A stretch of 40,230 nucleotides of DNA. Origin: a virus (lineage: Duplodnaviria; Heunggongvirae; Uroviricota; Caudoviricetes). The notes beneath the pieces were generated by a model. The model did not search any database and was not told where the DNA came from. It saw nothing but the letters and a program-made list of their open reading frames with translations. The translations under genes and the position numbers were made by a program. Below are positions 1,459 to 6,109 of this stretch, in pieces. Location of the stretch: positions 1 through 40,230 of the IMG/VR virus record IMGVR_UViG_2563366875_000002. One strand, given 5' to 3'. The number at the start of each line of letters is the position of its first letter. Position 1 is the first letter of the stretch.

Positions 1459-2622
1459 TTACACATCATTAGTACCTTCCTTATTTTTTGACTGGGACAA
1501 ATTTGGGACCGATGGGTTCAGGATCGAGTCTATTTGCCGTGCGTGTTCGGTAAGGTGATTAGGTGCAAGGTGAGCATATCGACGAACCATTTCGATAGAC
1601 TCCCAGCCTCCCATTTCCTGTAACACTGACAACGGGACTCCGGCTTGAACCAGCCAACTTGCCCAGGTGTGTCTCAAGTCGTGAAATCTGAAATCATCAA
1701 TACCAGCCCGTCTCAGCGCCGCTTTCCAGGCTGTGTTTGCGTCATACCGCATCTTCCTTACTGTTGGCGCTTTCGTTCCGTCTGGTTTGGTACAGCTTTC
1801 CTTGTACACAAATACCCAACGGTGATGATTCCCGATTTGTTTTTTCAATACGCGACATGCAGTATCATTCAGCGCAACGCCAATTGCGCGGTTTGATTTA
1901 CTCTCTTCCGGGTTTATCCATGCCACCCGGCGCTGCATATCTATTTGTTGCCATTCAAGGTTGATGATGTTCGAGCGTCTTAAGCCTGTTGCCAGTGCAA
2001 ATTCAACAACAGACTTTAATGGCTCCGGACATTCATCAATCAGCCTTTGTGCTTCATGGGGCTCCAGCCAGCGGATCCGTTTATTCTTTGGTTGAGGCAC
2101 TTTAATAATTGGTGCCTTATCCAGCATTTTCCATTCACGCTCTGCGGCTCTTAGTAGGGCCTTTATAAATGAAAGATGCGTAGCCTTCGTTGCAACGGAC
2201 GCTGGTTTTGGCGTGTATTCTGGAACAGGTTTCCCTTTTTTTCTGCATGCTTCTGCCCTGAGTTTCCAGTTTTCCTCATGACGTCGGTTCGTCATTTTCT
2301 GCATTGCTGAATAAATTTTTGATTCAGTAATGTCTCTTAGTTGCATTCCTGCGAAATGTTGAAGCCAGAATCCGATCCGGCTTTTGTCATCGTCCAGTGA
2401 TTTTTTATGTGCTTTCTCTTCAAGCCACCTGACACACGCTTCCTCGAACGTTATATCAGGTATTTCACCAAGTTTGCTGACCCGCCATGCTTCAGCCTTT
2501 AGCTTGTCATGGAGTTCTGTCGCCTGCCTTTTGTCCTTTGTTCCAAGAGACTGTTTAAATCTTTTACCGTTCGGCAATGTGAAACTGGCGTACCATATTT
2601 CACCTCTGCGGAAGAGTGACAT
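1459..2622 (-). CDS. tyrosine-type site-specific integrase
   Basis: 387 aa; C-terminal catalytic region [40 protein letters not shown] (HxxR...Y); N-terminal arm-binding-like domain; adjacent to tRNA attachment site. Confidence 0.9.
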
Positions 2623-3154: not shown

Positions 3155-3516
3155 TATGCTCCAGCCTCCGGTGCTTTTGGCATTACTGCCCAGTGAGTGA
3201 TATTGACGTTTTCAAGGTCCCCGACCTGAAATGTCCACTGCCATTCTCCGGTTTCTTTTTGTCCCCAGGTGTACCAGAGAGAACGCCAGCCAATTAGCCA
3301 GCCTTCTCCGTTAGCATCGAATAACAAAACACTTTCATTTGCTGGTGGCAGTTCAGTTGACACTGGTATTACTTTGTTTTCCTGTGCTGCACATTTAGCT
3401 TCAAGCGCATCGAATTTACGCACCAGGTATTCAGCATCCGTTTCATTCACTTTCAGATCTCGCGGTACACATCTCCCACGAAGAAACCCTTCCATTTCGA
3501 AAACATTCATGCGCAT
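3154..3516 (-). CDS. hypothetical phage early protein
   Basis: 120 aa ORF in the leftward operon, overlaps upstream gene end; no recognised catalytic motif. Confidence 0.5.
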   Translation of the reverse strand: MRMNVFEMEGFLRGRCVPRDLKVNETDAEYLVRKFDALEAKCAAQENKVIPVSTELPPANESVLLFDANGEGWLIGWRSLWYTWGQKETGEWQWTFQVGDLENVNITHWAVMPKAPEAGA

Positions 3517-4043
3517 TTGCGTAACTCCGATAATTCGTTAAAGCGTTCCATAAACATCCCGTAGGCATGGCCTGGAGCCAGTGGAATCACGTTGAACATC
3601 TCTGTTGCCGGGATACCTTCCAGCACAGGCCAGAAAGAGCCATCATCAAGCCCGAGATCGCGGCGTTCGGTTGCCAGCATAATGAGATCGGCATATTTCA
3701 CTGGCGTGCTCATAACAGGAGGTAACCCGTATTTCTCACGGATTACGGCGTCTATTTTTTCTTCCATCCGTTTATAGTCAGGAAGAAGTCGTTTCAGTGG
3801 TGCGGGGATGTCCTGGCAATATGCTTCTGTTGCATCATGCATTAAAGCTTCAAAAGCAAATTCCTGCGGCACCAGCTGGCTGCAAAGCACCGCATGTTGG
3901 GCGACACTGTAGAAGTGTGAAAGATGTCCTGCAAAGCGACAGATATTTGAAAGGGAAACCGCGATATCGTTAATAACGATGTCGTCTTTATTTATCCTGT
4001 CATAATAAAAATGCTTCCCGGAAAAAGTTTTAATAAATGACAT
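3507..4043 (-). CDS. HD-domain metal-dependent phosphohydrolase
   Basis: H...HD signature (VAQHAV ... LMHDATEA); start taken at internal ATG 4041-4043 preceded by GGAG (gtggagaacaaaATG) rather than the ORF-track start at 4070. Confidence 0.75.
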   Translation of the reverse strand: MSFIKTFSGKHFYYDRINKDDIVINDIAVSLSNICRFAGHLSHFYSVAQHAVLCSQLVPQEFAFEALMHDATEAYCQDIPAPLKRLLPDYKRMEEKIDAVIREKYGLPPVMSTPVKYADLIMLATERRDLGLDDGSFWPVLEGIPATEMFNVIPLAPGHAYGMFMERFNELSELRKCA

Positions 4044-4140
4044 TTTGTTCTCCACGTATATGCGCTGCACCGCGCTGAATTCGGGTAAAAGGAAGCCCTC
4101 ACCGTCCGGCGATTATTGAGTCAATTACATTTCCATAAAT

Positions 4141-4380
4141 GCCCCCGTAGGGGCGGTTAGTTTCTCCACAAAACAGAGAAGAACACCTGCGGTGGCAGCC
4201 GCCCGGATGGATTGGGTTATGAGCCCGTCGTCCGGTGATGCTCTTCTCTGTTTTGTAAAAAGGACGGTACCAGCCGGAAGCAAGGGTACAAACTGGTACC
4301 GCCAGGACTACACACAGCATAAAGTTGTGGTGCCGGGTGCCTCCCGGTGCCTGGCGAAGGTTGCACACCAGGCGGGTGTG
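4141..4380. other. GC-rich, highly structured non-coding segment (candidate structured RNA or cis-regulatory element); strand unknown
   Basis: hairpin 4141-4154; 15 bp perfect inverted repeat 4168-4182/4242-4256; 8 bp inverted repeat 4266-4273/4293-4300; hairpins 4333-4347 and 4364-4380; only overlapping, low-complexity ORFs in all frames. Confidence 0.35.
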
Positions 4381-4587
4381 TATCCACAGAAGGTCGACTG
4401 TCAGCCTCAACCTTAACCCGCGTGCGCTGAGCCGCATTCACCACAACGCTAAGGATTCTCTCTGGTTGAAAATACTTAGCTGTTATGTGCCTGCTTTTAG
4501 CCACATCAGGCGAGGTGGACCTAGTTATTCCCCAACAACAAGGATTCGGTTAATCTGGTTATCCCCAACAACGCAAAAGGAAAAGAA

Positions 4588-5022
4588 ATGTCCGGTAATA
4601 TCTATACGCTGTACAAATCCCACTGTGAAAATGTTGGAAAGTATCGGGGCATTGAAATCAGTGGGGTAGTGTCATCAGTCGAAATAAGCAAAGTTGAATC
4701 AAGGGCAACATTACTTACTCTTTTGGACCTTGTCTTACATGAGCACCGGAAGAAATTCGGCACTCCCTATAATCAATTGAATGGGAAAAAGGCTCTGGTT
4801 CACCTTATTCTGATGAAGCATCACTGGATGCCAAAACAGATTAATGAGATGAAATTTGATGAACTTCTTCTTTCAATTCAGGATGAACTCACACTTGATA
4901 AAATAAGCGTAACCGCCCAGAAATTTTTAGATTATCGAGACTGGAGATCACAAATTCATCACTTTGATGATTTTGACGAAAATGAATGGGATCCTAATTT
5001 GTCTGCACAATATCTAAAGTAA
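4588..5022 (+). CDS. hypothetical protein (moron-like, antisense to the leftward early operon)
   Basis: 144 aa ORF with RBS aaaaggaaaag before ATG 4588; AT-rich relative to upstream GC-rich segment; no recognised domain. Confidence 0.6.
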   Translation: MSGNIYTLYKSHCENVGKYRGIEISGVVSSVEISKVESRATLLTLLDLVLHEHRKKFGTPYNQLNGKKALVHLILMKHHWMPKQINEMKFDELLLSIQDELTLDKISVTAQKFLDYRDWRSQIHHFDDFDENEWDPNLSAQYLK

Positions 5023-5200
5023 CATCCTGTGATAAAACCGTGATTTCCTGATCCAGTTTTTTTAAGGAGTCTATTGTTTCCTGTCGATAAGACAGCACTT
5101 CACGAAGCTGGTTTATAGCTGCCAGCTTCTTTGTCATCCACTCATAAATTTCCTCATCTGTGTAGCCAGGCGCGACGATTTTGGGTTCTGTTTTGTGCAT
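4994..5200 (-). CDS. small hypothetical protein (68 aa)
   Basis: internal ATG (MHKTEPK...) preceded by GAGGAG at 7 nt spacing; overlaps 3' end of the plus-strand 4588..5022 gene; uncertain. Confidence 0.3.
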   Translation of the reverse strand: MHKTEPKIVAPGYTDEEIYEWMTKKLAAINQLREVLSYRQETIDSLKKLDQEITVLSQDVTLDIVQTN

Positions 5201-5259
5201 TTCACATCTCCTCAAGTTATCAGTTACTTGTTGATGGGGACCAGATTGTTAAAGAGCTA

Positions 5260-5286
5260 AGCGTCCTGTAGGGCGCTTTTTTGTTG
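5260..5286 (+). terminator. putative rho-independent terminator
   Basis: 7 bp stem AGCGTCC/GGGCGCT with TGTA loop followed by TTTTTTGTTG. Confidence 0.45.
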
Positions 5287-5434: not shown

Positions 5435-6109
5435 TTAGGCTTTGATTTTGTATCTTCTTGGTTTTCCTGAGAAAATCACTGTACCAATTATAGAGCAATT
5501 ACCGTTGATCTTAATGTAAGGCTCAGGCCAGTTTGGGTTTAACGCTTTGAGATAACGCTGTGTCCCATCTTCTATCAACCTTTTGAAGGTGGTTTCGCCT
5601 GTATCGTGCATCAATGCAATAACGTCGTCACCGTGGCAGGCAGGTACTTCAGGATCGACAAAAATCATGTCTCCCGGGCGGTACTCATCAATCATTGAAT
5701 CACCTATCACCCGCAAGATATAAGTCATTTCCCCACAGGGTACAGGGCAGGGATACGTTTCTGCTGTGCTCAAATCAACCTCAGAATATCCAACTTCTTT
5801 CCATGCTCCGGCCTGTACCCATGATATGACAGGGACTAATGTGATTTGTTTATTAGTGATTGAAACATCAGGTTTTTTTGTGATGTTCGTTGTCTGGTGT
5901 TCTTGATCGAGCCATCCGACAGGCAGGTCGAAACATTTTTCGATGTGTCGTGCCATGCTGTCACCGATATTTTTAGTAGCACCATCTCCCATAAACCTGC
6001 TGGTCTGGGTTGGCTCGCGATCAATCATAGTGGCAAAGGAAGAATTCCCGCCAACACCATCTCTCAGTTTTCTGGCGTTAGACCGCCGGATGTCATGGAT
6101 TGTTTTCAT
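5435..6109 (-). CDS. cI-like phage repressor (HTH domain plus LexA/S24-type autocleavage domain)
   Basis: 224 aa; N-terminal HTH region; C-terminal peptidase S24-like region with GDSM serine motif and downstream lysine; divergent from a cro-like gene across palindromic operators. Confidence 0.88.
   Translation of the reverse strand: MKTIHDIRRSNARKLRDGVGGNSSFATMIDREPTQTSRFMGDGATKNIGDSMARHIEKCFDLPVGWLDQEHQTTNITKKPDVSITNKQITLVPVISWVQAGAWKEVGYSEVDLSTAETYPCPVPCGEMTYILRVIGDSMIDEYRPGDMIFVDPEVPACHGDDVIALMHDTGETTFKRLIEDGTQRYLKALNPNWPEPYIKINGNCSIIGTVIFSGKPRRYKIKA

Follow-up and report, generated by a model that had tools for sequence, protein, structure and literature searches.

What is the GC-rich, densely structured segment that lies in the early leftward operon of a lambdoid prophage, between yfdR and a gene of 144 amino acids (aa) on the opposite strand? 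We addressed this question for positions 4100-4575 of the virus record IMGVR_UViG_2563366875_000002, a stretch of 40,230 nucleotides (nt) that was analyzed at full length and is called the window here. An original prediction had suggested a structured regulatory RNA, such as a put-like cis antiterminator as in phage HK022, a small RNA (sRNA), or an array of protein-binding sites. We conclude that the locus belongs to a known kind of element, the phage sRNA loci, rather than to a novel type of antiterminator. Within the DicF/STnc100/PasD class of prophage sRNA loci it is divergent and unannotated, and it is joined to a three-way-junction motif. The reading that we favor, with a probability of about 0.6, is that the segment is the noncoding RNA block of a repressor-controlled early-left operon, a mosaic variant of the dicF-type locus of the Qin prophage, and that it yields DicF/PasD-like sRNAs. 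The coordinates of its features are collected in Table 1.

The composition and folding of the segment agreed with what had been noticed. Its GC content is 0.547 in 4051-4500, compared with 0.41-0.45 in the flanks. The 15-bp perfect inverted repeat (ACAAAACAGAGAAGA/TCTTCTCTGTTTTGT) is part of a pair of 25-nt arms (4168-4192 and 4232-4256) that are 84% complementary. Further inverted repeats lie at 4265-4273/4293-4301 and 4324-4332/4439-4447 (9 of 9 positions paired in each), at 4359-4369/4375-4385, and at 4448-4460/4468-4480. On the minus strand, positions 4130-4590 (461 nt) fold at -188.5 kcal/mol, whereas shuffled sequences fold at -151.1 ± 6.8 kcal/mol (z = -5.5; 0 of 100 as good). The plus strand folds at -169.7 kcal/mol (z = -3.6). 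The density of stems is therefore real. However, it is not unique to this phage, because matches to the segment occur in 2784 of 5426 complete E. coli genomes and in 74-90 phage records, including SfII, SfIV, SfV, mEp460, Stx2c phages, and ST64B.

The segment does not appear to encode a protein, as had also been proposed. It contains four overlapping open reading frames of 74-114 aa, none of which has a Pfam match. No frame is conserved: the ST64B counterpart is 77% identical in nucleotides but only 50-56% identical in amino acids in every frame, and the best frame switches in other relatives. Existing annotations call the segment a hypothetical protein (SfII_35) or, from PGAP, a frameshifted pseudogene. 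Because no frame is credible or conserved, both are annotation artifacts.

Comparison with about 130 related loci, from which the module boundaries were drawn, resolved the region into two RNA modules that recombine independently (4143-4304 and 4305-4480) and a distinct module (4481-4572) leading into the plus-strand gene. Evidence for conserved RNA structure came from a long hairpin in the first of these modules, which invariably comes directly after a terminator. Its stem has 21 bp, or 25 bp if the U-tract of the terminator pairs with GGAGA, and leads to a three-way junction with one arm that carries GGGCUCAUAACCC and a third arm that is variable. The hairpin alone folds with a z score of -7.7. 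Compensatory base changes, which the original prediction had suggested looking for in homologous prophage regions, were found. In one alignment (A1), 97% of cells were paired and 7 pairs had changed on both sides; in another (A3), which spans about 15 genera of Enterobacterales, 95.5% were paired and 9 pairs had changed on both sides. None of 500 shuffles was as good in either case, and slid controls were only 33-52% paired. The third arm and the stems differ in sequence among relatives yet stay paired. Genome scans found the hairpin in Citrobacter, Enterobacter, Kosakonia, Mixta, Buttiauxella, Leclercia, Phytobacter, Pseudescherichia, Pseudocitrobacter, Erwinia, and Pantoea. A covariance model of the three-way junction scores 100.4 bits on the minus strand and 36.7 bits on the plus strand, and its G.U pairs form only on the minus strand. 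Therefore, the structure is in the minus-strand RNA, which is the strand of the leftward operon.

These results bear on the idea that the segment is evolutionary debris, in which tRNA genes or a protein gene have decayed and the stems survive by chance or through recent common descent. A tRNA origin is hinted at by an anticodon-arm identity with initiator tRNA and by relatives in tRNA arrays (both described below), and a degraded gene by the PGAP pseudogene call and a deletion of yfdP-yfdQ next door. However, the deleted genes are the neighboring yfdP-yfdQ pair and none was inside the segment, no frame is conserved, and ARAGORN calls no tRNA even in relaxed mode. The compensatory changes hold 95-97% of the pairs across about 15 genera, the third arm and stems retain pairing as they vary, and the element is in about half of E. 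coli genomes. The debris idea is largely refuted by the covariation, and we consider it the least probable of the explanations discussed here.

The second RNA module contains a multihelix domain, which we refer to as the cloverleaf. A 9-bp helix (GUUGUGGUG/CACCACAAC; 4447-4439 with 4332-4324) closes it. Inside are a GGUGAAU junction, two internal hairpins, and the hairpins P2 (GCGGCUCAGCGCACGC) and P6 (CCGGGAGGCACCCGG; CCGGG-AGGCA-CCCGG). An Rfam scan of the kind proposed for this locus matched the full STnc100 model (RF02076, model positions 1-206) at 4255-4477, on the minus strand only. The match scored 43.1 bits (E = 7.5e-8) at a relaxed threshold, which is below the gathering cutoff; at the gathering threshold, the only match in the whole window was thrW. 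The same model gives 37.7 bits for PasD1 and 34.4 bits for the second cloverleaf of Qin. The window has the STnc100 hallmarks, in that the closing helix with its GGUGAAU junction is accompanied by the CCGGGAGGCACCCGG hairpin and by an intrinsic terminator at the 3' end. In the consensus fold, both the closing helix and P6 have undergone compensatory changes, seen in P1, phiES15, Qin, and PasD1. The cloverleaf is also 62.6% identical over 171 nt to the domain in the dicF-dicB spacer of K-12 Qin. Relatives keep the cloverleaf scaffold and exchange its interior for unrelated structured sequence, with about 15 interior types. A further hairpin abuts the 5' side of the closing helix (Table 1).

Members of this family are known RNAs. 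STnc100 copies are transcribed, as verified by Northern blotting in EDL933 (PMC5331693), and one copy overlaps the Hfq-bound EcOnc27 (PMC12711010). The family is related to the Hfq-dependent PasD sRNAs (PMC8550237; bioRxiv 10.64898/2026.05.13.724894), of which PasD1 is validated (PMC8550237). PasD1 begins at the closing helix and has its seed in the spacer before the terminator. The window matches the full STnc100 model better than does this validated sRNA. However, it differs from STnc100, EcOnc27, PasD1, and PasD2 in its internal hairpins and spacer, and also in position. It lies in the early-left leader between the repressor gene and yfdR, whereas those sRNAs are encoded in the late region near Q, stx, an esterase gene, and lysis genes (PMC12370729; bioRxiv 10.64898/2026.05.13.724894). 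Identity with PasB was considered and rejected; PasB is an 83-nt RNA of another prophage, and its probe sequence is absent here.

The cloverleaf is followed by a single-stranded spacer and an intrinsic terminator, and both resemble DicF. The PasD seed and the 5' end of DicF are at the position equivalent to this spacer, and the motif GCUGUGUGUAGUCYU next to the terminator is conserved in several genera. By analogy, the spacer could serve a DicF-like short sRNA as its seed and as the entry site for RNase E. The terminator folds at -20.5 kcal/mol (z = -3.7). Its stem covaries in relatives from other genera (GGCGGUACCAG, GGCGGCGCCAG, GGCGGCAUC, and GGGCGGUAACA), and U5-U7 always follows. Spacer and terminator together (4323-4257) are ~70% identical to K-12 DicF, with UGGCGGUAYCAGUUU in common. 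The Rfam DicF model (RF00039) gives only 15.7 bits (E = 1.7) at 4262-4316 on the minus strand, compared with 76.7 bits for K-12 dicF. We also paired the window RNA with the ftsZ start region by using RNAduplex. It did no better than shuffles, and neither did genuine DicF, so this comparison has little power.

Table 1. Positions of the RNA block, its flanking modules, and the early-left genes and signals in the window
Feature	Position	Strand	Remarks
yfdR, HD 5'-deoxynucleotidase	3507-4070	-	Leftward operon
Segment homologous to yfdQ-yfdR intergenic spacer	4071-4154		Matches K-12 CPS-53 and most related phages
Small GC hairpin CCGCCCCUACGGGGGC	4141-4156	-	Fold -12 kcal/mol; in yfdQ-yfdR spacer of relatives
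Long hairpin, stem and three-way junction	4167-4257	-	91 nt; directly after terminator
DicF-like intrinsic terminator	4257-4303	-	Stem GGCGGUACCAGCC...GGCUGGUACCGUC at 4303-4262, then U5 at 4261-4257
Single-stranded spacer UUUAUGCUGUGUGUAGUCCU	4302-4323	-	Between cloverleaf and terminator; unpaired in minimum-free-energy fold
Cloverleaf domain	4447-4324	-	~125 nt; multihelix, STnc100/PasD type
Hairpin GCUAAGUAUUUUC-AACCAGA-GAGAAUCCUUAGC	4448-4480	-	13-nt inverted repeat, 85% complementary; within STnc100 match
Conserved anchor GCCTGCTTTTAGCCACATCAGGCGAGGTGG	4489-4518	+	Hairpin at 4489-4511; boundary of RNA block and cargo hot spot
Direct repeats GTTAT(T)CCCCAACAAC	4524-4539, 4558-4572	+	Each followed by AAGGA; ahead of 144-aa gene
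144-aa gene, ECs1072 family	4588-5022	+	Antisense inside leftward operon
73-aa gene	4994-5215	-	Leftward operon
rrn-type boxA core GCUCUUUAACAA	5257-5246	-	Exact; ~105 nt downstream of pL-like promoter
pL-like promoter TTGACA-16-CATAAT	5395-5368	-	Sigma-70 scan; just beyond repressor's terminator
LexA-like repressor gene	5435-6109	-	

The dicBF operon of Qin offers the closest parallel. DicF is made from a polycistronic dicBp transcript, in which RNase III forms the 5' end of a 190-nt species and RNase E that of a 53-nt species, and no internal promoter was found (Ragunathan et al., bioRxiv 10.1101/2023.04.14.536235). The order in K-12 Qin is cloverleaf, DicF, second cloverleaf, and dicB, which is the same architecture as in the window. 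The second Qin cloverleaf, in the dicF-dicB spacer, has a closing helix of 20 bp. By arithmetic, the 190-nt form would start at the base of the first Qin cloverleaf. This form, including that cloverleaf, is 79% identical to a Stx2c-phage variant located where the element of the window is. The equivalent in the window runs from 4447 to the U-tract at 4257, which is also ~190 nt, so the predicted long form matches the 190-nt species in size. The window shares with Qin a noncoding block in the repressor-controlled early operon of a lambdoid prophage, a pL-equivalent promoter, a preceding structured domain, a single-stranded stretch, and a GGCGG...CCGCC-U terminator that includes GGCGGUAYCAG. However, the two loci differ in several ways. 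The 5' seed is GCUGUGUGUAGUCC in the window and UUCUGGUGACGUU in DicF, and the terminator stem is longer in the window. The leading cloverleaf of the window is of the type that Qin has downstream of dicF. Where Qin has its second cloverleaf, the terminator of the window is succeeded by a three-way-junction hairpin, and the downstream genes of the window are yfdR-xis-int rather than dicB. In the literature that we searched, DicF was not linked with STnc100 or PasD. The cloverleaf domains that flank dicF in Qin (locus L213; 1752-1870 and 1953-2083) are both unannotated in the K-12 record.

The operon around the segment fits this class of locus. The window contains an SfII/SfIV/SfV-like lambdoid prophage integrated at thrW, a tRNA-Thr(CGU) gene at 1369-1444 that both Rfam and ARAGORN identify and that is the only tRNA found in the window. 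The leftward order on the minus strand is repressor, 73-aa gene, RNA segment, yfdR, yfdS, yfdT, xis, and int. A strong sigma-70-like promoter just beyond the repressor gene is the pL equivalent. In SfII, SfIV, mEp460, ST64B, and the window, the element is always found downstream of the repressor gene and no more than 1 kb beyond pL. Over most of the ~1.3 kb between pL and yfdR, the transcript is untranslated.

The prophage has a Q-family antiterminator and no recognizable N, and a strong terminator comes after a structured RNA near the start of its pL operon. These features could suggest a put-like element, that is, a factor-independent cis antiterminator that allows read-through of adjoining and downstream terminators. 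HK022 putL and putR are likewise structured RNAs that precede terminators in an early operon of a lambdoid phage lacking N. The read-through that put confers in cis depends on the zinc-binding domain of the beta-prime subunit. At ~72 nt, the put RNA folds into two stem-loops and begins at position +3 of the PL transcript (PMC9378689). In contrast, the domain in the window is ~125 nt, multibranched, and ~900 nt from the pL-like promoter, and its interior is not conserved. Put elements are ~70-nt RNAs with two stem-loops that lie at or within ~270 nt of the early promoter and resemble one another in sequence. For the segment, blastn against the HK022 nun-cI-cro region, which includes PL and put, returned only noise. 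Furthermore, RNAs of this family accumulate with their ends at this terminator (PMC5331693, PMC8550237; bioRxiv 10.1101/2023.04.14.536235), so that in relatives it defines RNA 3' ends. The put-like explanation is therefore very improbable. Of the suggestion of a structured regulatory RNA or sRNA, the general part stands, and it was the put example that failed.

A boxA near pL is another possible route to processivity. The exact core GCUCUUUAACAA occurs once in the window, and the motif is kept as (C/A/U)GCUCUUUAA(C/A)AA in 32 related loci. No N-like gene was annotated or found in the prophage. A lambda-type nut site with N and boxA-boxB in the early leader was also not found: boxA is present, but the adjacent hairpin pairs better on the opposite strand. 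From the sequence, protection against Rho by Nus factors and boxA in an N-less phage is a plausible alternative to the antiterminator that had been suggested. The boxA near pL and the lack of an N gene suggest Nus-factor antitermination of the largely untranslated early-left leader. We also considered the U-tract region of the terminator as a boxA, which reads CGCUCUUUUUACAA in many relatives. That identification was rejected; the window and other genera deviate there, and the true boxA is near pL.

How might such a block work? Leftward transcription from pL would pass antisense through the 144-aa cargo gene and then into the RNA block. It would make, in order, the ~125-nt cloverleaf, the single-stranded stretch with the DicF-like terminator, and, in read-through transcripts only, the 21-25 bp stem with its tRNA-like three-way junction. 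The read-through operon would go on to yfdR and eventually to xis and int. By analogy with DicF and PasD, a long RNA of ~190 nt (4447 to 4257) would comprise cloverleaf, seed, and terminator, and RNase E cleavage in the spacer would give a short RNA of ~60-70 nt. Both would presumably be Hfq-associated regulators that base pair with host mRNAs through a seed unlike that of DicF, and their targets may differ from those of DicF. The sequence comparisons demonstrate that the block is noncoding, on which strand it is structured, how it folds and covaries, and that it is homologous to the STnc100/PasD and DicF loci; these proposed enzymes, the Hfq dependence, the action in trans, and the existence of targets are extrapolated from homology and geometry. 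The terminator would limit the transcription that reaches yfdR-xis-int, and RNase III would probably cut the 21-25 bp stem, which would part the RNA block from the downstream mRNA.

Several points weigh against this sRNA reading. The scores fall just short of the Rfam cutoff of 47 bits for STnc100 and far short of that of 48 bits for DicF, and the U-tract of the terminator has just 5 U. A sigma-70 scan found no convincing promoter directly upstream of the cloverleaf, nor one for the plus-strand 144-aa gene; by eye there is a weak GAGAAT -10 element 7 nt before the closing helix, without a -35 element. Therefore, expression in a lysogen would need pL leakage or induction. RNase III cleavage of the long stem is proposed from its geometry alone. 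The locus itself is known here from its sequence, and the evidence for expression comes from other copies of the family. Finally, in P1 and some relatives the cloverleaf stands directly before a gene without a terminator. Therefore, the domain may be mainly a cis-acting processing or stability element.

This last point leads to the main rival, a purely cis-acting leader. Here the terminator would be an attenuator that gates yfdR-xis-int, and the cloverleaf and three-way junction would be RNase III or RNase P signals for processing or stability, with no trans-acting sRNA. It fits the same anatomy. The cloverleaf is directly upstream of tciA in P1, of dicB in Qin, and of genes at other loci without a terminator; the long perfect stem resembles an RNase III site; tRNA arrays end in relatives of the three-way junction, which have an RCCA 3' end like RNase P substrates; and the terminator precedes the early-left genes of an N-less phage. 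However, the closest relatives with data (DicF, PasD, and EcOnc27/STnc100) are Hfq-associated sRNAs that act in trans or bind targets (PMC8550237, PMC12711010, PMC5069750), and the conserved single-stranded motif beside the terminator is seed-like. We regard an exclusively cis-acting leader as possible but unlikely. Cis-acting processing and attenuation are compatible with the production of DicF/PasD-like sRNAs, and the two can coexist.

The three-way junction has relatives of its own. The 13-nt loop-stem GGGCUCAUAACCC is identical to the anticodon stem-loop of E. coli initiator tRNA. The upper hairpin is homologous (~40 bits, E ~1e-8) to a 70-nt tRNA-like unit of Klebsiella-type phages, with which it shares GACGGGCUCAUAAYCCAAUCCA. 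The acceptor-like stem of this unit has 7 bp, and its 3' end reads RCCA. Of the 16 loci checked, 14 have the unit 6 nt beyond the final tRNA of an array. Homology of the upper hairpin extends further to two copies in the P1 ban operon, between the P1 tRNAs and tciA. The same operon contains tRNAs, a region resembling dicF, and, immediately before tciA, a cloverleaf. The initiator-like anticodon loop is common to the window, the P1 ban operon, and the Klebsiella phage units. However, the window hairpin lacks a D arm and a T-loop consensus, and it has a 21-25 bp duplex in place of the acceptor-like stem of the array units, with no CCA. ARAGORN in standard, mitochondrial, and relaxed modes found no tRNA in the segment or its tRNA-like relatives, and Rfam RF00005 had no match in the segment. 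With E-values up to 10, Rfam gave no credible match to the long hairpin, only a chance-level hit to MIR1094 (18.4 bits; cutoff, 80 bits). The three-way junction appears to be a conserved tRNA-derived motif that is apparently uncatalogued.

Three observations concern these relatives. In Klebsiella-type phages, the unit at the end of the late-region tRNA array is D-armless, with an initiator-like anticodon arm and a covarying third arm (loci L010 [1977-2044, minus strand], L015, L020, L022, L040, L047, and others); it is not called by ARAGORN, and the one locus scanned with Rfam (L010) gave no match. P1 (L006) has three-way-junction units in tandem, at 2523-2606 and 2784-2883 on the minus strand, which flank upl and lie upstream of the STnc100-like cloverleaf and tciA. 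SJ46 (L007) has a single hybrid unit (2621-2702). Its parts meet at the conserved anticodon-like motif, as recombination between the copies would produce.

A further proposal is that the long hairpin does more than serve as a stem for processing. It would represent an uncatalogued tRNA-derived RNA family of temperate enterobacterial phages, in which the invariant initiator-tRNA-like arm is active, and it would be freed by RNase III here and by RNase P in the tRNA-array form. It might be a tRNA mimic or decoy, for example against VapC-type toxins that cleave initiator tRNA or against other anticodon nucleases, or it might be a new class of processed regulatory RNA. We offer this only tentatively and consider it unlikely.

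The flanks of the RNA block have different histories. In most relatives, the counterpart of the yfdQ-yfdR spacer segment is ~1.3 kb further along the operon, after yfdP-yfdQ. Because 4071-4154 corresponds to this spacer and homology breaks at 4143, yfdP-yfdQ have been lost from the window, as in SfII. The junction is at the short GC hairpin, of which relatives (L003, L004, L008, and others) have copies in two places, ahead of yfdP and in the yfdQ-yfdR spacer. The sequence suggests that yfdP-yfdQ were removed by deletion between short repeats. No gene was lost from within the segment, and so a degraded coding gene, which had been named as a possible source of the stems, is unsupported.

On the other side, the anchor is ~95% conserved even where both of its neighbors differ, and in relatives at least 12 unrelated plus-strand genes follow it (for example, in L046, L093, L019, L009, and L143). 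The anchor thus marks a cargo (moron) hot spot antisense to the pL operon. In some relatives, an extended -10-like TGGTATACT is immediately past the anchor. The two direct repeats upstream of the 144-aa gene that had been reported are present, and their core CCCCAACAAC occurs exactly twice in the window (4530-4539 and 4563-4572; 0.14 expected). One or two CCCCAACAAC..AAGGA units precede the start codon of different cargo genes in relatives. Because the anchor and these units precede at least 12 unrelated genes, the repeats are the leader of the cargo-gene hot spot on the plus strand and are outside the RNA element, to which they had been assigned. For the repeats only (4524-4572), we considered control of the 144-aa gene, either through an array of operators in the DNA or through binding of a translational regulator to the RNA, for example CsrA (ACAAGGAU-type GGA motifs). 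The two copies are 34 nt apart just upstream of the start codon, both are followed by AAGGA, and they are conserved ahead of different cargo genes. However, no regulator was identified, palindromic symmetry is absent, and the units can be read as duplicated CA-rich leaders with Shine-Dalgarno sequences. Such a regulatory site is improbable.

No function for the 144-aa and 73-aa neighbor proteins emerged from Pfam, PHROGs, or PADLOC. Their genes converge with a 29-nt overlap at 4994-5022. Two plus-strand terminator-like hairpins for the 144-aa gene (5104-5129 and 5259-5278) are inside or just upstream of the 73-aa gene, and so transcription from pL and transcription of the cargo gene collide. 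Among relatives with the same RNA block in their left operon, ST64B (L005, 5732-5920) and an Stx2c phage (L008, 5562-5750) have IsrK and C4 antisense-RNA modules (Rfam, 60-80 bits) in the right operon. Rfam found no match to C4 (RF01695) or IsrK (RF01394) in the window.

About half of complete E. coli genomes carry this block either unannotated or misannotated as a hypothetical protein or pseudogene. DicF, STnc100, PasD, and phage tRNA arrays, which were treated separately in the literature that we searched, appear as one modular system of tRNA-like structured RNAs in phage operons. The modular comparison gives a concrete model of how the 190-nt DicF precursor is built, and the three-way junction with its initiator-tRNA-like arm is a candidate new RNA family with strong covariation support. 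If the block does yield DicF/PasD-like regulators with a different seed, then a common prophage family would add unrecognized posttranscriptional regulators to its hosts, switched on when the repressor fails.

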